A stretch of DNA of 64,000 nucleotides, taken from the NCBI GenBank assembly GCA_035221665.1, contig CM069149.1:29574001-29638000 (forward strand), read 5' to 3'. Below are positions 17,512-57,369 of this stretch, in pieces. This DNA is from Okamejei kenojei (taxonomy: Eukaryota). The position numbers were made by a program, and so were the translations under genes. Position 1 is the first letter of the stretch. Every line of letters starts with the position of its first letter. The notes beneath the pieces were generated by a model, which had not been told where the DNA came from, searched no databases, and saw only the letters and a list, made by a program, of their open reading frames with translations.

Positions 17512-18270
17512 TTTTTTTTGTTTTTTTTTGTTTTTTTTTAACAAATGCTTTTATTTAAATCAACAAGTACAAAACATTAAAACAATCAGAAAATGCCTAT
17601 ATTTGGCATTTTACAAACAAAGTTTCAAATTAAAATATTATCATTTTTATCTATAATGCCTTCGACCTCCCTCGGTGACCAGCGTTCGCGGAAAGCCTCC
17701 ACAGTCCCCGTGGACACCGCGTGTTCCCTCTCTAGGGACACGCGGGCACGGACGTAACCCCGGAAGAGGGGCAGGCAGCCGACTGCTGTGCGGCCGTCGA
17801 CTGCCCGCTGCCTGGACCCGCGAATGGCCATCTTGGCCAGGCCCAGGAGCAAACCGACAGGGAGACCCCCTCCTCCCTCCCGACCCTCCCCCCTCTGTAC
17901 CGGGTGCCCAAAAATAAATAGTGTTGGACTAAAATGGAGCCAAAACTTGAGGAGCAGCCCCTTCAGATACTCGAACAGGGGCTGCAACCTCTCGCACTCC
18001 AAGTATACATGGAGCACGGTCTCCTCCTCGCCGCAAAAGTGACAGGCGGCGGACGAGTCCGTGAACCGGCTCAAGTACCTGTTGCATGCCACGGCTTTGT
18101 GCAACACTCTCCACCCCAGGTCCCCGATGTAAAGGGGGAGGACTCCCTTATAGAGAGACCTCCACTGAGGACCTTTCCCCTCGTCAGGTGGTAACACAGA
18201 CCGCCAGGGCGTGTCTGGACGGCTTGCCTGTGGGAGCCGCGCTTGGCATCATGCAGAAAAAAAATTGCTT
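17512..18270 (-). mobile_element. 5'-truncated L1/Tx1-clade LINE 3' end with intact zf-RVT-like ORF end
   Basis: ORF 17625-18197(-) DLGWRVLHKAV..CHFCGEEETVLHVYLEC; AATAAA on minus (~17550) and poly(A) tail (poly-T 17512-17539 on plus). Confidence 0.85.
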
Positions 18271-21148: not shown

Positions 21149-22366
21149 ACTAGATCAAAGGGGACCCTTTGCGTGGTGCTGACTTCGGCGTCACACACAC
21201 ACTAACCACCACCCCCCCCCCCACACACACACACTAACCCCCCCCCCCTTGATATTATATGAATATTATTAATTCGCTCCTTTTATCCCACCCCCCCCCC
21301 GCCCCTATCAACTAACACATAACCCCCAACTGCGCAGGCGCGGCTAGAGAGGGGGGGTGGAGAGGGAGGGTGGTAAGAGATTGAGGGGTGGGGGGGCAGC
21401 GTCACAGGGTTTGTTACTGTTGTACATTTTGTGCACATTTGACGTCATAGAGGGGGAGGCAGAGAGGGAGAGGGAGGGGCAGAGAGGGAGGGAGGGCAGA
21501 GAGGGAGGACTCCCTCCTCACTCTCCCCCCTCTGCTGCCCCCTCTCTTCTCCCCCTCCTCCCCCTCTCCTCTTTCCCCTCTCCTCCCCATCTCCTCTCCA
21601 CTCCACCCCCCACCCCCCCCCCGCTCTCCCCTCTCTCTCTTTCTCTGCCCCGGAGAGGGGGAGGGGTAGAGGCAGCACCTACCCAGGTCGTAGTGCAGAA
21701 TCCTCCCCACCAGGCTGCGGCCGGTGTGGACCAGAGCGAGGCCCGGAGCGATCTGAGTACGGTCAAAAGCAGTGGAGGGCCGGCCGAACGTGGCTTCCAC
21801 GAGGGGAAGCACACCCACCAGCGTGACAGACGATCGGGCGGGGGAGACGTAGAGGAGGTCGTCCCCTGTGACGGCAGCCACGGCAACCTTTCCACTGCGC
21901 CTCCCCATGCTGCGATAACGACCGCCGCCGCCATGTTGTAGAGCTTGAAGGCGTCCAGCGGAGCGAGCAGCACGACTTGAGCATGTGTTCAACGGTTTTA
22001 ATCCAGAGCCCTTGGGAGGGCGGCTAAGCCACGTAACTCGCAGCTCGTGGCTTCGCGTTGAAAATTCCGCGCAGCATGCCGCGAGGAGCAGAGGCATTGT
22101 GACGTCATCCAGCTCGCTTCAGCTCGTTAACTTCAAAAAATATCTCAGATTGGTGAATAATTTTAGTAAAATCTCGGGAAATAATGAATCAAATTTACAG
22201 ATGAGGTGATTTTTGCAATCATGAGGTAAATCTCTACCGGAATATGTAAAAATTTCACTGTTGCTGCGTCGGGTTTTCGAGGAGATGTGAATCAAAGTAA
22301 AAGTTCAAGCAAGCAAACAAACCCACAAGTAAACATCCAAGATCAGAGTTTTATATTATAATAGAT
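21149..22366 (+). mobile_element. Helentron/DINE-1-like non-autonomous element, GC-rich
   Basis: Starts ACTAGATC, ends gagttttatattataATAGAT; no TIR or TSD seen; termini resemble 7620-7982. Confidence 0.55.
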
Positions 22367-31599: not shown

Positions 31600-32250
31600 G
31601 TGCCTGCCCGCTACGGACGGCGTTGGGTGGGGGGTGAGGCGCAAGGCTGCAGACCTCGCTGCCGTGCGAACCTACCGCCTTGTGCAGCCTGCCAGTGGTT
31701 CATTGCAGTCCTTGCGAGCTGGTTGGCCCCCGGCGCGCCACGTGAGGCGAGTCACCGGACAGCTGGGGGCGGCGGGCTGGGTGGGGGGGAGGGACGGGGG
31801 GAATCCAGGCGCTAGCAGAGGAGCCCTGAGCCATCCCGACTGCTTTCAATAATAAATAATAATAAAAAAAAAAAAACCAACAACCAGAGGACCTAACGCT
31901 GTTATGGGAGACAAGAAGAGTCCCACCAGGTAGAGTACTTTCGGACCCGCCACTCCCTCCGGGGAGGGGGCTGGGGGAGAGAAAGAGAGAAGAGGAACAG
32001 GAGCTCCCTTTAAATGTTTTCATGGTGGAGGGTGACCGATGGCAGAATGGGAGCCGATGGCTGTGGAGCAGAATGTCGGGGAGCTCGATACAATGTAGCA
32101 GCCATGGCGGACGGGATTGTTACAGTCGCCAGTGTGCGTGCTTGCGTGCGTGGGAAATTGACATGGGAAGCTGCGATTTCGCTGAAACGATCTGGCCCTT
32201 TTTTCTTTTGATCGGCACCGATTGCCGCGAAGGTCTTTAGAGGAGGAGAA
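31600..32250 (+). promoter_or_regulatory. CpG/GC-rich promoter and first-intron region of YAF2
   Basis: Local CpG and GC enrichment (ggcgcgcc, ggggcggcggg) around the ATG exon in an otherwise AT-rich region. Confidence 0.6.
31904..31929 (+). CDS. YAF2: YAF2 first coding exon (MGDKKSPTR)
   Basis: ATG GGA GAC AAG AAG AGT CCC ACC AG|gtagag; identical to the human YAF2 N-terminus. Confidence 0.93.
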
Positions 32251-32417: not shown

Positions 32418-32543
32418 ACCCAAAAGGCAGCCAAAGCCTTCCACAGACGAGGGATACTGGGACTGTAGCGTCTGTACGTTTAGGAACAGCGCAGAGGCTT
32501 TCAAATGCAGTATGTGTGATGTCAGGAAGGGCACATCAACACG
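32418..32543 (+). CDS. YAF2: YAF2 exon 2, RanBP2-type zinc finger ([42 protein letters not shown]). Remaining exons lie beyond the window
   Basis: aaacag acceptor, gtgagt donor; W-x-C-x2-C-x3-N-x6-C-x2-C motif. RQPKP/EGYW (rather than RYBP-type RQAKP/EGFW) and adjacency to ZCRB1 favour YAF2 over RYBP. Confidence 0.95.
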
Positions 32544-34149: not shown

Positions 34150-35050
34150 GGCACGGAAACAGGCCCTCTCGGCCCTTCCAGTCCGTGCCGACCATTTGTT
34201 TTCCCCTAGTCCCATCTACCTGCACTCAGACCGTACCCCTCCATTCCCTTCCCGTCCATATACCTATCCATTTTACTTTTAAATGTTAAAATCGATCCTG
34301 CCTCCACCACTTCTGCTGGAAGCTCATTCCACACAGCCACCACCCTCTGAGTAAAGAAGTTCCTCAGCAACTTTTTACTGGCAACATTCTAGTAAATCTC
34401 CTCTGTACTCTCTCTATTTTGTTGACATCCTTCCTATAATTAGGCGACCAAAATTGTACACCATACTCCAGAATTGGTCTTACAAATGCCTTGTACAATT
34501 TTAACATTACTTCCCTACTCCTATATTCAATGCTCTGATTTATAAAGGCCAGCACACCAAAGGCTTTCTTTACCACCCTATCTACATGCGATTCCACCTT
34601 CAGGGAACTATGCACAGTTATTCCTAGATCCCTCTGGCATTCCTCAATGCATGTCCTATTTTGATTTGTCCTGCCAAGATGTAGCACTTCACACTTAACA
34701 GCATTAAACTCCATCTGCCATCTTTCAGCCCACTTTTCCAAATGGCCCAAATCTCTCTGTAGACTTTGAAAATCTACTTCATTATCCACAACACCACCTA
34801 TCTTAGTATCATCTGCATACTTACTTATCCAATTTTCCACCCCATCATCCAGATCATTGATGTACATGACAAACAACAGTGGACCCAACACAGATCCCTG
34901 AGAACCTGCCAAACAGCCATCCACCATTACTCTCTGACATCTCCCATTCAGCCACTGTTGAATCCATCTTGCTACTCCGCCATTAACACACAAAGATTGA
35001 ACCTTCTTAACCAACCTTCCATGGGGAACCTTGTCAAAGGCTTTACTGAA
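34150..35050 (-). mobile_element. CR1-type LINE RT fragment, relatively young
   Basis: ORF 34364-35014(-) QGSVLGPLLFVMYINDLDD..ISKYADDTKIGG..RPILEYGVQFWSP. Confidence 0.93.
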
Positions 35051-41300: not shown

Positions 41301-42209
41301 GATCTCAGCATTGCATTGTAATTATTTAAATAATTGTATACTTTCTGCAAAGACCTATTTTCCAGTTATTTGTTCTCAATTTGAAGACCAAGTGTCTGAA
41401 GAAATCTGCATGTTCCGATATTGCCATTTAGGTAATATAGGTCCACCACCGATTTTTCCAGAACCCCTAGCTCCAGAGACCTTGCTGGATTATCTGCTTT
41501 TACAGACCAATGGAGGTCACAGCCTCTGAGAGGAGTTGAATGGACAACCTACATTGACGGGGAGGTGAGATACTGGCCCACAAAACCGACCTTGGAAGTC
41601 GACTATGGGAATGGATCTGCTGGGTTGGAGTTCAAGAACCTTGGCTGCAGGGGACAAATTCAACTTGCTGATCAGCTGCAGAAGTCCTGGTGGGGTTAAG
41701 ATCGGCCGCCTCACCTGGCCTAGGTGCCACATTTTCAGAGGGATTTCAAGTGCGACCTCGTAATTTCATCCAGATTAAAGGAGGTGCTGGAAAATCCCAA
41801 GGCAGGAAACTCTTAGAGGCACAAGGAACTGCAGATGTTGGAATTTTGAGCAAAACCTGCTGGAATAACTGAGCGAGTCAGGCAGCATTTGTGCAGGGAA
41901 TGGATTGGGCATGTTTAGGTCAGGATCCTTCCTCACACTGTAAGTGGAAACTCCTACCTTGGTTTGGTTAATTGTGTATTTTACTGCTTTCTGTGAGGTT
42001 TTCTGCACACTTTCTTCCCTCTTTTTGAATAGTCTCCTCTTGTCTGAGTAATGGAATTCCGCATTTTGACAGTAGCACCGAGGTGTGTGATTGTTGTCTG
42101 ATTCTGGCCTCTAGTGTTTCAGCAAGTTCATCAACGATTGCAGGCATGATCATAATTGAGCGTGATCACACGTGCAACGGAAGTTGCCAAATGAGATACA
42201 ACCAAAGGT

Positions 42210-42935
42210 ACACAAAAAGCTGGAGAAACTCAGCGGGTGCAGCAGCATCTAAGGAGCGAAGGAGATAGGCGACGTTTCGGGTCGAGACCCTTCTTCAGAC
42301 TGGTAGGGATCAGGGAAACGAGAGATATAGACGGTGATGTGGAGAGATAAGGAACAATGAATGAAAGATATGCAAAAAAGTATCGATGATAAAGGGAACA
42401 GGCCATTGTAAGCTGTTTGTGGTGTGAAAATGAGAAGCTGGTGCGACTGGGGTGGGGGAGGGAGATAGAGATAGAGGGAATGCCAGGGCCCAAGGGCTGA
42501 GGGAGAGGTGGGAAGGGGAGGAGACAGCAAGGGTTAACAGAATTGAGAAAATTCAATATTCAAGCCCAAAGATGTCTCCTCCCCTTCCCACCTCTCCCTC
42601 AGCCCTCGGGCCCTGGCATTCCCTCTATCTCTATCTCCCTCCCCCACCCCAGTCGCACCAGCTTTTCATTTTCACACCACAAACAGCTTACAATGGCCTG
42701 TTCCCTTTATCATCGATACTTTTTTGCATATCTTTCATTCATTGTTCCTTATCTCTCCACATCACCGTCTATATCTCTCGTTTCCCTGATCCCTGACCAG
42801 TCTAAAGAAGGGTCTCGACCCGAAACGTCGCCTATCTCCTTCGCTCCTTAGATGCTGCTGCACCCGCTGAGTTTCTCCAGCTTTTTGTGTACCCTCGATT
42901 CTTCAGCATCTGCAGTTCCTTCTTTAAAAAAAAAA
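42210..42935. mobile_element. Young palindromic Penelope-derived insertion (inverted terminal repeats, two hammerhead motifs, A-tail, 17-bp TSD)
   Basis: Arms 42207-42526 and 42573-42893 are reverse complements; gagatacaaccaaaggt is duplicated at 42193-42209 and 42936-42952. Confidence 0.92.
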
Positions 42936-45900
42936 GAGATACAACCAAAGGTGGCAGGTTGAACGTTGGAACCTTCCTTTTTAGTTGACCTCGCATTTTC
43001 TGGGCAATCATCTAAATGACTTGAATGGTCTTGTCATGGTATCTACAATGTTGGAAAATGAAACATTTGCACTTTGCAGTGGAAATGGAGCTAGCACTGA
43101 TCCTTTGGCGAAGACCAAACTGCTGGAGGAACTCAGTGAGTCGGCTCCAAATAGACAGGTGGCATTTTGGATCAGCGCCCTTCTTTGGACATGGAGATTG
43201 GTGGTCGAACGAGGTGAGGGGAAAGGGCATGTCTCCAGCACTGAACCTTTACTGGATGACCCAAGAAGGTAACCTACTTTGGGTCATCCCTGTGGAGGCC
43301 AAGAGTTTTGGAGGTTCTGTCAGAGACAATAGATTGGGTTTAAGAAGTTTTGTACAGTATATGGCCAGAGGACTGAATTTGTGGGAAAGGGTGTTCCAGA
43401 GTACCAGACTGAGATGATTGAAGGCTCTTGCCATGCTATGGCACTGTGTGCAAGAGATGGATGATCTCAAAACTTGGAAAGGAGGGAGTGGAATGGACTA
43501 GGATTATAATATTAAGATTGGCTTACGTAAATTGGAAAGTCTAGTTGAAATTTGAAGGGGGCAAAGTTCGGAGCTGAATAGGAAATAGTGATTCCCGCAG
43601 GTTTAAACTTAATCTTCATATTCAGGTCTCCTCCATTTTCACTTCCACAGCAATATCCATAGTAATTTCTGTTGTGATGATTCAATAGCCTGTACATGAA
43701 GCTAAAGTCTGCTTAAAGATTTTCAACACCATATTTCTAACATCCGTTGTTTGAAATCTAAAATTCACACTTGCTAACTTCAGCTGTCTTATCAGCAATC
43801 AATTAAGTGCATAATATTGCTGTAGTTGTTTGCCCCTCATGCGTTTAAATATTAGTTGCAATGAAGTGCTGACAACAGGCCTGATAAGGCTAAGAGGGGG
43901 TAAGCCTTTGGAAGCTTGTTGATATTCTTTGTCTGAGACGGGGAACAATAGCTCTTGTTGGAGAGAGTGCTCACAGGTTAATAATACACATTTTGTATTC
44001 ACACCCAAAAGATGTTTACTTGCCAACGGTACTGGAGAATGTCCAATTCTATCCAAGAGTGATATTTTCAAGAAGTGAGAATGAAACGGTGGTGAAGAGA
44101 TGATGAAAGCATATTTTTGTTGATTCATTTTTCAGGTTGTTGACATTGTCAGCAAGGCCGGTGTTCACTGTCCATCCCTAATTGCCCTAATGAAGCAGGT
44201 GGTGTGCTGTCACCTTGCACGGCAGTGGTCCTTCTGGTGAAGGTGCTCCTGTGGGCGGCGGGATTCCCATACAGCCATGGCCCTGTCATCCTAGGTGGTA
44301 GAGGCTGAGAGAGTTGGAGCTGCAGTCAGTATTTCTGCATTGCTGGTGGAGACAATTAATGTTTGCAGTGATGGCCAGGGCACTACTCAAGTGGACTACT
44401 CTGGCTTTCTTGTTTTGGGGCATCTTGTTGTTGATGTGCTGATATAGGCAAATTGAGGGACATCATCCTCTTGTCATGCCTTGTGGAAAGGTCTTGGGGC
44501 ATCAGGATGTGAGCAGGATACCCACATCTCTTTTAGGCATAGTTTGAATGTGACCAGTCAGTTGAGTTTCTGGTTGATGTTGGACTTGGCAAGAATATTA
44601 TCTCTGAACATCAAGGGCATATCAAGGGTCAGAACTGCCCTTACTGGATATAGTGATTGCTGGCAAATATTGACTTGCCTCATCAGCCCATGTCTGAATA
44701 TGGTCTTGGTGGTACTACACAGAGGAGTAGGCTGCTTCAATTGCTGACGAGGTGGAAGAAAGGTGATGCAATCATCAGTGAATGTATTCACCTTATGGAG
44801 GTTGGAAAGTCACTGATGAGGCAATTGAAGGTGGTTGGATCTTGGACACTGCTCTGTGGAGTTCCTGCAGAGATGCTGGGTTGTTTCACCTCCGACAGCC
44901 GTGGTTATGTACCTTTGGGCAAGGTATGCCTCCAGTCACTGATCCCCATCACAGTTTGATCCCACTCTTAGTTAAAATGCTGCCTTGATGTCAAAAGCAG
45001 TCATTCTCGTTTGCCCTATGCAATTCTGTGTTTGGACCATGGCTGTGATAAGGTCTGGAGCCAAGTGGTCCTAGGCATCAGTGGATAGGGAAGAAGAGAG
45101 AAGCAAGGAACTGCAAATGCTGGAATCTTAAGCAAAACACAGAGTGCTGTAGGAACTCAGTGGGTCAAGCAGCATCAATAGAGAGGCAACATTTCTGGCA
45201 CAGAGCTCTTTCCACCTGAAGAACGGTTCATACCCAGAACGTTGTCTCTCCATTTTCCTTGTAAATATTTATCGAGTTCACTTTTGAATATTATACTTAA
45301 TTCTGTCCAGATAAGTACTCTTAACAATCGTTTCCCCTTGTGTTCGTTTTAATATAGACTATTTCTCAGTGTCCTTTGTTTCCGACCATCCTCCAATGGG
45401 AATAGTGTCCATTTAATTACCTTTATGGGTTTAAATGCTTCTATTAGATCCTATTTTGACCCAAGGAGAACAGCTTTAGCTCCTCTAGAACCTCCTCTCC
45501 AGAATCATCCTGATTAGTTTCATCTGCACCCACTTTGATGCCTTTAGATTTTTCTGAAATTGTCATGTCTAATACTGCAGATCGGATATCGTTCTTGAGG
45601 AAAGATAAGGGTGCCCTTATGACCCACTTTGATGCCTTTATGTTCATTCAGACTAGCTTGCTCAAGCATCTGAGCTTTGTGAACCTGCTTGCTAATGTAG
45701 ACCCTGCTTTCTCATAGTCGGCGGAATCTCCCTTCTACTTTTAGCAGTTTTCCAGCAGAGGTGAAGGGGTCTGCAGCAGTCAAGTCCTCTCGGTTTCAGG
45801 TCCCTGGCCATGTTCCTGGTACTTTGTTCTTTCAAGCTGTGCTCGTGATGGTAGAGGAGAATATTTTCCTCTTGCGAAGCAACCTTTACCCTTCCCCACA

Positions 45901-46516: not shown

Positions 46517-46646
46517 TAGGAAGGAGCGGCAGATGCTGGTTTAAACCGAAGACAGACACAAAAAGCAAGAGTAACTCAGCGGGACAGGAAGCGCCTCTGG
46601 AGAGAAGGAATTAATGACATTTCAGGTCGAGACCCTTCTTCAGACC
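46517..46646 (-). mobile_element. Penelope-like terminal fragment with hammerhead motif
   Basis: Minus strand reads ggtCTGAAGAagggtctcgacctGAAAtgtca; ccttaatacat occurs on both sides (46499-46509, 46645-46655) as a TSD-like repeat. Confidence 0.8.
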
Positions 46647-51549: not shown

Positions 51550-51950
51550 GAATGAACAGCAGGTGCTGGTTTATACCGAAGATAGACCCAAAATGTTGGA
51601 GTCAATCTGGCCACATTCTCTGGAGAGATAAAAAATAGATGACGTTTCTGGTCGGAATCCTTCTTCAGACTGAAAGTAGAGGTAGGGGGAAATCAACTGG
51701 AGGTGAGAAAAGGCCAGAACAAATCAGAGCCGGCAACAGATGTCCTCAGGAAGGGTGTAGCCCAAAATTGCCCATTGTGGTCTGGGGAAGGTGTGACAAC
51801 CAGAGGGCTACAAGGATGTGACCGGTGGTACTGATAGGACAACTAGGGTGAGGGAGGGTAAGAAAAGTGGGGAGGGAATGCAGGAATTACTTGAAATTAC
51901 AGAAGTCAATGTTCAAATGGTTTGGTTGTAAGCTGCCCAAGCATAATATG
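51550..51950 (-). mobile_element. Penelope-like terminal fragment with hammerhead motif
   Basis: Minus strand reads agtCTGAAGAaggattccgaccaGAAAcgtca at ~51640-51671; tacttgaaatt..gaagtcaatgttca marks the ORF end. Confidence 0.75.
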
Positions 51951-54900: not shown

Positions 54901-57369
54901 ACATTTCAGGATGTGACTGGATCTTGGTAAGAAAGAAAATAGCCAGTGATGAAACGTAAAAGAGAAGAGCATCTTTGAAGTTATAATGCAAGAAACTTGG
55001 AAAATTACTTTGCACAAAAACTTTGGGATCTCAGCACTTTAAAAAAATTGGATATTTTTCAGAAATGAAGAAAGCACTAAATGCAGGATGAATCATTTGT
55101 TATGCTGTGATGGGTATATTGTAGAAATGTTCAAGATCTTTATTAGGTAAGCTAGTGAGACCGTAGAAAGATGAATATTTGGAAATGGAGAATTTGAATG
55201 TTTGTGGAGATGATCAGAATTCTTTGTATTGTGTGGAGAGCTCTCTGACTGTTGACATGATGTGTTATAACTTAAAATGGTACCTTTTTGCTTTTGGACG
55301 TGAATTATTTTTGTTAACGGGTACAGGAACTGTCAAACCTGACATCATAGATGCAAAGATTATGAAAGCATAGATAAAGACTGTATTAACTACCAAGTCA
55401 TTACTGGTGTATTTTTCCCATTCACAAGTAAATTGGTCTAATTATCCTGCATTCTAAATGTTCTTATGTTTTAAAATATTTTTATGTTAGCTATCTTTTA
55501 ACATTTTTGATTCAATAAAATACATTTGTGGCAGATAAATTAACCATTTAACTTTAAAAAATAAATGTTTTCAAGGTGTTTCTCCCCCCCCCCCCCCCAC
55601 ACACACACACATATGTCTTGCCAACTCATGAAAGTGACCAGTTATGCTGTCATCTTCCATAATCACAAAATATATAGGTATGCCCATACCCGATCAACCA
55701 TGAGATCTTGTGACGAAAGCACTAACTTTTCAAACTTCGCCTCATCACATTGTCATTTGAGTCTTGTGCAAATCATTCTCTGATAGTCGCATCTGCTGAA
55801 TTTCCAGAGCTTTCAAAAAACGTAATCAGTTGGGGAAGCATTACCTCCTCCACAAGGTTAGGTGATGCATGAGTGATGATGCAGAATTAAGTCTCGTGCA
55901 CTGACATGAGCAGCACAGAAAACACTCTGCAAAGGCTTGGAAATTTCTTATCCAAATTAGTAATTGAGTCGGACACAAAATGCTGGAGTAACTCCTCAGC
56001 GGGACAGGCAGCATCCTGGAGAGAAGGAATGCATGACGTTCCGGGTCACTTCTTCAGACTGTCGTACAGTATGGAAACACAGAAACTGCGATCCAACTGA
56101 TCCATAGTGACCATGATGCCCCATCTAAGCTAGACTGAATAGCAGGCAACAAAAGCTTTTCACTGTACCTCGGTAAATGTGACAATAAACTAAACTGAAA
56201 ACCTTCTTCAATATCTGCTTTTGACCCATATCTAAATCTTTCCTATCTGTGTATCTGTCCAAATGTCTTTTAATGTTCTAGCAGAAAATCAAAAACATTT
56301 AAAAACATCTGCCACTGCTCAAAATGTCATTCTGAGGAAGTTATTTCACATGTGCTATAATCAAAACACTGCAAGTTAAACCACAGCAAGACATCCTTTA
56401 TTTTGATGCTAATTGTTAATGTACTGATAATTCATTTGTTTTCCTTAATCTTGTATACAATTACATTCCAAAGGCAGTAACACAAAAGATGACTCGAGAT
56501 CAATGTTATGTTGTGTTATTGACAAGAAATTGATTCACACTTTTTAATCATAATTTTCTTTTGTAAGATATCACAATCGCATATTCTTTGTGCCACTAAA
56601 ATTGTTTCCTCAAAAGTCTTGACCACAAGGCGACCATTTTCTGCCATTGTGCTTGAGTAACAAGACTGGTCTATTGTGTATCTGTCACCAAGTCAATGCT
56701 GTTCAAGGGCAGTGAGGGGACATTGTGTCTTAGCAAAGTAGATGCTAGGGTAGTTAATAGGGGTGGTCATCTCTTGTACCTGTGCACTCATAAATAACAG
56801 CTCATTGAAATACTGCGATCGTGTTTTGCTGTCTTGCGCGTAGCTGTAATTTTAATCAACTCTCGTGCTAGAGCTGACATGATTTGTTTGCTTCGCTTTG
56901 CTACGCGTGGGCCCAAGAAGGAATGTATTTGTTCTGACTGATAAATTAAAACTTGGACAATACTGCTTCAGATTTTAATAGGTAATAAAGGTAATGGCTC
57001 TGTCCTTTTCATACTGTGTTAACGTTAATATGGTTGCATCTGAATGACAAAAGATTGAAGGAACTTGAGTGCTGGATTGATAAGTTACGTGATACCACAC
57101 AAAGCAGCTTCACAAGTGAAGCAGACGCAATTAAGGCTTTGCAGTGACCATTTGACCTTTACTTTTTGTGAATTTGATGATAGGTGAGAGGCCTTTATCA
57201 GCCCTAGATTTATAGGGTATTTCCAAAATAAAAGTCTACACTTTTCAAACTTTTGGTAGGAATTTGAATTCTTTAAGACGGATTTCTATTTGCTATGAAA
57301 TAGACTAACCACTTCAACCAGTCTAATATGGTGTTTCTGCTCATTTTGCAAGTCTTTCTATTGGACTGA

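Follow-up and report, generated by a model that had tools for sequence, protein, structure and literature searches.

The window analysed here is a stretch of 64,000 nucleotides of the Okamejei kenojei genome (NCBI GenBank assembly GCA_035221665.1, contig CM069149.1, positions 29,574,001 to 29,638,000 of the forward strand), and positions below are counted from its first letter. It holds the first coding exon and exon 2 of YAF2 (table 1), with further YAF2 exons lying ~99 and ~108 kb downstream in the neighbouring DNA. The exon-2 peptide scored higher against YAF2 (68.6 bits) than against RYBP (64.0 bits), and a second locus of the YAF2_RYBP family was located on another contig. The subject of this report, a palindromic insert at 42193-42952, lies in YAF2 intron 2 and is made of two 3' ends of a Penelope-like element (PLE) joined back to back; each end carries a hammerhead-type ribozyme motif, and the plus-strand arm, in which the core position G5 is changed to A (G5A), is the sense arm of the gene.

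Anatomy of the insert and its parent family

The two arms (42207-42526 and 42573-42893) were aligned as reverse complements over 321 columns and differ by three substitutions (column pairs 42296/42804, 42434/42665 and 42492/42607) and one indel at ~42304, each of the four being private to one arm and two falling on each. The insert is flanked by a direct repeat of 17 bp, or 21 bp if one mismatch is allowed, and GGT, the final three nucleotides of its left copy, overlaps the left arm; the right arm extends into a tail and then a run of ten A (A10). To this extent the preliminary description, which had been made from the letters of the window, was confirmed by alignment. Its 46-nt loop does lie between the arms but is not a separate spacer, since the last 45 nt of the inverted copy lie here and encode LGLNIEFSQFC-stop, with which a GIY-YIG frame closes. 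The term protein-free does not hold in the strict sense, the loop being a stump of coding sequence that retains the last 11 codons of the element frame. Because the frame end is found on the left arm alone and the tail on the right arm alone, neither arm can be a self-copy of the other. Both arms share a rare variant that was carried by 4/84 arms of the family, and the central head-to-head junction had a single match genome-wide at no more than two mismatches, the YAF2 locus itself. Copies of the family end mostly in AACAC or AAAAC, some with runs of A, and since the element runs on beyond the point equivalent to A10 in full-length copies, A10 is probably not a poly(A) tail.

Table 1. Positions of the parts of the insert and of the YAF2 exons in the window.
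Feature	Position	Strand	Remarks
YAF2 first coding exon	31904..31929	+	host gene
YAF2 exon 2 (zinc finger)	32418..32543	+	insert lies in the following intron, ~99 kb
Left target-site duplication copy, 17 bp	42193..42209	+	last 3 nt GGT overlap end of inverted copy; likely priming microhomology; similar overlaps in other copies
Inverted 5'-truncated PLE copy, 365 bp	42207..42571	-	reference positions 859-1224; ends at the 'short' 3' end of the family, without tail
Minimal type I hammerhead motif, intact core	42271..42298	-	CUGAAGA, extra A, stem II, GAAA, ACGU palindrome, GUC site; 2-bp stem I
'Loop': last GIY-YIG codons (LGLNIEFSQFC-stop) and a few bases of 3' untranslated region (UTR)	42527..42571	-	left arm only
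Junction of two truncated 5' ends, head to head	42572		one extra A, or TG microhomology with one G lost; genome-unique
Direct 5'-truncated PLE copy (3' UTR / pseudo-long terminal repeat)	42573..42925	+	ends at the 'long' 3' end
CCAGTCT, initiator-like	42797..42803	+	likely start of element RNA; point where most short family copies begin
Sense-arm hammerhead motif, CTAAAGA	42802..42829	+	G5A at 42804
PLE 'tail', ~33 nt	42894..42925	+	right arm only; tails described in PMC8557442, PMC3846280 and PMC11167929
A10 run at end of tail	42926..42935	+	likely slippage or untemplated addition
Right target-site duplication copy	42936..42952	+	17 bp

The 40 best matches to the right arm were 96-100% identical to it. 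A 31-nt word across the start of the hammerhead had 17,236 exact matches in the genome, and a 34-nt word from the 3' end had 42,390, which gives at least 42,390 copies of the family. The reading frame upstream in these copies ends in the same LGLNIEFSQFC-stop and contains a GIY-YIG match preceded by a CX4CxxC linker (CNRKKCNTC in copies L002 and L234, CNCKKCNTC in L235); the 647-aa frame of the long copy L232, in which the linker was not matched, gave matches to RVT_1 (E 5.6e-6) and GIY-YIG (E 0.0019) and has YIDD and YIGET motifs. The PLE origin proposed in the preliminary description is supported by these reverse transcriptase and endonuclease matches. A CX2-5CxxC linker is assigned to Neptune and Nematis (PMC8557442), and by its sequence the family is a Neptune-type (or Nematis) endonuclease-containing (EN+) PLE, the two clades not being separated here.

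Long copies measure ~4.1 kb, and in front of four of the five stands a partial copy with the tail at its end, as a tandem of pseudo-long terminal repeats (pLTRs); the fifth begins at the hammerhead. Copy ends were mapped in 88 regions covering the first 100 listed matches to the 31-nt word, from which 98 arms were recovered. Two fixed 3' ends were found, a short end (reference 1222-1238; 57/98 arms) and a tail end ~33 nt further (reference 1258-1261; 38/98). At the other side, 19 of 30 short copies have their first base at a position corresponding to 42795-42804, by CCAGTCT at the 5' edge of the hammerhead, as does the full-length 4.1-kb copy L236, and 46/85 truncated 5' ends (a biased sample) fall at reference 1129-1135. 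CCAGTCT resembles the initiator consensus and is likely the start of the element RNA. Such a clustering of 5' ends would fit uncleaved templates and a promoter inside the element, like that demonstrated in Drosophila Penelope (PMC2377424).

Three further observations concern copy ends. A weak cluster of 5' ends, 8/85 in the same biased sample, lies 0-4 nt past the predicted cleavage site at reference 1161-1165 (loci L094, L150, L153, L176, L239, L241, L242 and L247, five of them at one position and two with a common junction) and possibly reflects cleaved templates. A reading of the main 5'-end cluster as a spliced exon was rejected, as the copies keep CAG and their upstream flanks are unrelated, and a fixed 5' end suspected at position 598 of L002 proved to be a truncation of that one copy. 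Finally, L003, L008 and L014 (G000:C3, ~41.69 Mb) form a complex array in which pieces of the element end, 160 bp and 1 kb in size, are repeated in tandem and inverted.

Fold-back copies and a proposed course of insertion

Head-to-head pairs with both canonical ends were present in 10/88 sampled regions, eight of the ten having a duplication of 8-16 bp, and two further inversions among the regions were set aside; the 5'-inverted repeat layout given in the preliminary description is therefore seen at the window locus and elsewhere. Among the first 100 matches to the 34-nt word, covering 5.7 Mb, pairs within 2 kb were head to head in 15 cases and tail to tail in one, from which ~6,400 head-to-head pairs were extrapolated for the genome. 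A larger collection of fold-backs was then compared arm by arm; it is a biased set of loci, from which duplicates were removed by flank and in which one complex locus was counted three times. A short end was paired with a tail end in 38/40 fold-backs. In pairs of unequal arms, the short-end arm reached further 5' in 24/32 (p 0.007), and in 13/16 where both arms were long (p 0.02); the 33-nt offset of the two 3' sites would by itself slightly favour the short arm in very short pairs. Each arm contained sequence missing from its partner in the window insert and in those 24/32, and the tail arm contained the entire short arm in the other 8/32. At polymorphic sites the two arms of a pair agreed in 212/218 cases, compared with 67% (maximum 84%) in shuffles.

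An inverted 5'-truncated copy, a tail on one side and a target duplication make up the published PLE layout (PMC8557442, PMC3846280). Inverted-pLTR EN+ PLE insertions (Adineta Pen2a_Av, PMC3846280; scheme in PMC8557442, Fig. 2; D. virilis Penelope, PMC2377424) likewise have an inverted 5'-truncated copy head to head by the 5' end, a tail of 30-40 bp on one end only and a target duplication. They differ from the YAF2 insert, in which both copies are cut to ~360 bp with no reading frame between the repeats; the duplication of Pen2a_Av is 8-10 bp, compared with 17 bp here (PMC3846280).

We put the probability at about 0.85 that the insert consists of two 5'-truncated Neptune-type PLE 3' ends set head to head within a 17-bp duplication, arising by what was likely one insertion event primed from both nicked strands, and that G5A is likely neutral. 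Starting from the anatomy, the family, the copy numbers, the two fixed 3' ends, the uniqueness of the junction and a G5A frequency equal to that of controls, we infer the following steps. The element endonuclease would nick the two strands at points offset by 17 bp; one 3' end would anneal through GGT/ACC at the short site and be extended by 365 nt, and the other would prime at the tail site, ~33 nt further 3', and be extended by ~355 nt. The truncated ends of the two cDNAs, which would come from the same source lineage and perhaps from one RNA, would be joined by end joining, and the four private changes would accumulate afterwards, two per arm.

Several of these steps have a counterpart in the Anolis Poseidon element PAc (PMC11167929), whose protein is predicted to be a dimer. 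In vitro this protein cleaves and extends both target strands, starting at two neighbouring internal positions between which the tail lies. The two systems are alike in these two internal reverse transcription starts, in the hammerhead just upstream of them, in the extension of both target strands and in the uncleaved RNA template; the skate family differs in its Neptune/Nematis CX4CxxC linker and in junctions that often have 2-4 nt of target overlap. A literature search, with most subscription papers outside its scope, returned no paper on this family or on a model with two cDNAs.

In twin priming by LINE-1 (L1), both target strands prime, a 5' segment is inverted and microhomology is used at the second primer, and the segments come from neighbouring stretches of a single RNA. 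On the proposed course the YAF2 insert is alike in priming from both strands, in its inverted 5' segment and in the microhomology at the second primer; unlike in L1, its segments overlap by 321 bp, the same region having been copied twice.

Some points weigh against the proposed course. Later gene conversion could also account for the identity of the arms and raise their concordance; the Anolis element in vitro starts without homology to the cut DNA (PMC11167929), as opposed to the 3-nt overlap seen here; the Pfam matches of L232 are under the curated cut-offs (26.6 of 29.6 bits and 18.9 of 22.6 bits); and the inner junction was unbridged among the contigs listed for runs X1, X4, X6 and X16, a gap in coverage that proves nothing by itself.

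More tentatively, and with the balance of our judgement against it, the fold-backs may record the two reverse transcriptases of one dimer travelling one behind the other along the same uncleaved RNA. The enzyme in front would be primed by one nicked strand at the short site, and the one behind it by the second nicked strand at the tail site. Copying in file would entail that the same stretch is copied twice, that the arms have source variants in common (212/218) and that the short-end arm usually reaches further 5'. If this were true, a single mechanism would underlie the inverted pLTR and the one-sided tail, and initiation at two sites in vitro would be linked to a genomic structure.

The strongest competitor of two primed cDNAs is the self-priming of one cDNA by snap-back, or template switching, with G5A neutral in this case too; a model of this type has been proposed for antisense templates (PMC3846280). 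It would yield head-to-head orientation and near-identical arms, and it allows for the 8/32 unequal pairs in which the short arm lies wholly inside the tail arm. It does not predict that each arm should have sequence absent from its partner, as it has here and in 24/32 unequal pairs, nor that the outer ends should lie at two fixed initiation sites and not at random points, and we consider it unlikely.

Hammerhead-type motifs and the G5A change

Each arm carries a minimal hammerhead motif with an ACGU palindrome, as the preliminary description had proposed. The conserved core (C3, U4, G5, A6, G8, A9, G12, A13, A14, A15.1, U16.1 and H17) is complete in the left arm, which has a private 1-nt deletion just upstream of the motif at ~42304, and is changed by G5A in the right arm. 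Helix II includes G10.1-C11.1, with an extra A after A9, and helix III is the ACGU palindrome. Stem II was first given as 5 bp; that version needs a 2-nt loop and was rejected by the folding program, so that the motif stands with a stem II of 4 bp (GGGU/ACCC) closed by a CUCG loop. In either arm, stem I has just 2 bp (U-G, G-C) and falls short of the 4-5 bp of most minimal hammerhead ribozymes (min-HHRs) in PMC4209133, where a 2-bp helix I is described for D. virilis only. That paper also describes minimal hammerheads that occur in pairs, one on each strand, at a spacing of 100-700 bp; compared with the min-HHRs of metazoan PLE pLTRs in it, the present putative ribozyme differs in a helix II of 4 bp and a helix I of 2 bp.

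An Rfam scan of the insert gave no hammerhead family at E<=10, and the assignment therefore depends on the motif and on the published descriptions; Rfam miRNA matches to the hairpin were rejected as hairpin-driven, all being under gathering scores. No hammerhead fold was obtained when single motifs were folded in isolation (z 0.13, 0.28 and 1.12), and in two-molecule folding the best pairing was formed between the palindromic stem II regions of the two molecules and was not a hammerhead. Canonical hammerheads lose cleavage through G5A (PMC4027429). Among related minimal motifs, monomers do not cleave and dimers cleave at a low level (PMC4209133), and cleavage by a related PLE hammerhead requires the protein of the element (PMC11167929). 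Given the 2-bp stem I, the folding results and the behaviour of these relatives, there was probably little cleavage activity for G5A to abolish.

The RNA of the insert was predicted to fold at -689.5 kcal/mol, compared with about -230 kcal/mol for shuffles (z -54; 0/20 shuffles as stable), which supports as a prediction the long hairpin in YAF2 pre-mRNA put forward earlier, a duplex of 321 bp. At 3/3 transcript lengths tried, the sense motif was predicted to be fully paired to the left arm, which is transcribed earlier. The arms would thus zip up in the pre-mRNA and hide the sense motif, leaving G5A without effect, and the intact minus-strand motif would be hidden likewise in any read-through antisense RNA. 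Long duplex RNA of this kind would be a plausible substrate for ADAR editing.

Alignment of the arms confirmed that, of the two, the sense arm alone has G5A, and genome-wide counts confirmed that it is not the majority state of the family, as 17,236 copies have G and 44 have A (44/17,280, 0.25%); all 98/98 sampled arms have G, having been selected by that motif. The preliminary description had further read the change as a meaningful hit to exactly the copy transcribed as YAF2 pre-mRNA, and this could not be upheld. At sites outside the ribozyme, CTGA>CTAA, the change that G5A also represents, occurred in 126/42,516 copies (0.30%; Fisher p 0.45 against G5A) and CTG>CTA in 131/42,521 (0.31%; Fisher p 0.32). 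Among the sampled arms, changes of the types TG>TA and CA>TA amounted to 13/4,505 (0.29%). A further control, a G>A change 9 nt upstream of G5 in CTGA context, was dropped as a variant of a source lineage, being present in 1,237 copies (6.7%); variants outside the core can accordingly spread in the family, and G5A has not. The chance that one of four changes falls on the 12 core positions is ~7% if the sense arm is counted by itself and ~14% if a hit in either arm counts. At least two other fold-backs have one intact and one G5A motif, L049 (G000:C7) and L051 (G000:C8), found among 30 of the 44 G5A loci that were examined; in both, the tail arm has kept its motif intact and the short-end arm has G5A. 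Since its frequency equals that of matched controls outside the ribozyme, G5A is likely a neutral later mutation that arose by chance and not a protective adaptation.

Selection may be set against this interpretation: an active sense hammerhead, dimerized with abundant PLE RNAs or acting before the hairpin forms, would cut YAF2 pre-mRNA, and G5A would have been fixed for preventing it. The change is private to the sense arm and of a kind known to inactivate (PMC4027429), and three considerations weigh here against neutrality. Pooled genome-wide counts are blind to selection confined to sense-intronic copies. Hammerhead motifs in the YAF2 introns are antisense in seven cases and sense in three, and all three sense motifs are altered as opposed to 4/7 intact antisense ones. 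Tandem retrozymes, moreover, are depleted from Xenopus introns (bioRxiv 10.64898/2026.07.22.740005). The YAF2-intron comparisons rest on few motifs, however, and are non-significant (p 0.17 for the altered motifs and 0.34 for orientation); G5A is no commoner than the changes counted in matched controls, the sense motif is predicted to be paired while emerging, a monomer with a 2-bp stem I gave no hammerhead fold, and related motifs are inactive as monomers, weak as dimers (PMC4209133) or dependent on protein (PMC11167929). With a 7-14% chance per copy and thousands of fold-backs, such cases are expected, and selection on G5A is very unlikely.

Age, genomic setting and significance

The left junction into the inverted copy was crossed by contigs of two samples of the same species from two studies (41875-42230 and 41876-42228). 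The same two samples also have contigs that leave the direct copy across the right junction (42910-43312 and 42909-43500); one of the two may be the source of the assembly. In a related organism (D), a contig passes from 42168 to 42942 with 83 letters between, the 743-bp insert being absent. This would be the empty site in a related species, although it has ~50 letters more than the 30 of a clean one; organism B looks similar (42169-42192, runs X12 and X6). Divergence per arm is 0.6%, below the ~1.8-2.1% per lineage of the right flank against organisms B and D, and the insertion is therefore likely younger than the splits from both, in agreement with the youth ascribed to it at the outset, with the reservation that conversion between the arms would make it look younger.

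That the fold-back is an assembly artefact, for which the unbridged inner junction in the listed contigs of runs X1 and X4 might be adduced, is very hard to reconcile with outer junctions present in two samples from two studies, four private arm differences, a flanking duplication and a layout recurrent across the genome. Least credible is the view, suggested by the term MITE-like in the preliminary description, of the palindrome as a non-autonomous unit moving whole like a miniature inverted-repeat transposable element or a retrozyme: the insert is compact, duplication-flanked and almost free of coding sequence, and L094 and L176 have the same 45-nt junction context, but the window junction occurs once in the genome, which largely refutes this view for the present copy, and arm lengths and junctions differ among loci. 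Non-LTR (long terminal repeat) retrozymes (bioRxiv 10.64898/2026.07.22.740005) are also non-coding, derived from PLEs and equipped with a type I hammerhead, but they are head-to-tail tandem repeats, in contrast to this one-off head-to-head insert. Because its junction is unique, the insert must have been assembled in the act of insertion and is not mobile as a whole.

Older related PLE ends, 68-82% identical, lie in YAF2 intron 2 at 41823-41940, 43110-43190, 45105-45176, 46520-46645, 51635-51672 and 55973-56061, and those examined are antisense to YAF2. Four older palindromes, 74-82% self-complementary, lie in the downstream YAF2 introns (contig G000:C19, extended-window positions 114621-114901, 122820-123100, 131067-131266 and 136890-137054), two of them with a hammerhead-like motif, so that hairpins are not unique to this site in YAF2 pre-mRNA. 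Elsewhere in the window, open frames at 34367-35050 (-) and 17628-18248 (-) resemble fragments of other LINE-type (long interspersed nuclear element) retrotransposons, putatively a CR1-like reverse transcriptase and an L1/Tx1-like C-terminus. A G+C-rich segment with long open frames on both strands at 21348-22118, ~10 kb upstream of YAF2, may be where a neighbouring minus-strand gene has its 5' end.

The insert is real and ordinary, a young PLE insertion of a known type whose core mutation is likely neutral. As a single locus it carries little weight, being one of ~6,400 head-to-head pairs and having a G5A change at background rate. The family as a whole is a natural record of PLE integration. 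Its young copies number in the tens of thousands, have two fixed 3' ends and a single favoured 5' end, and permit a well-powered test of selection against sense-intronic hammerheads in a vertebrate. Such selection, of which there is no indication here, would if true be a rare sign that host RNA is cut in vivo by the minimal hammerheads of PLEs.

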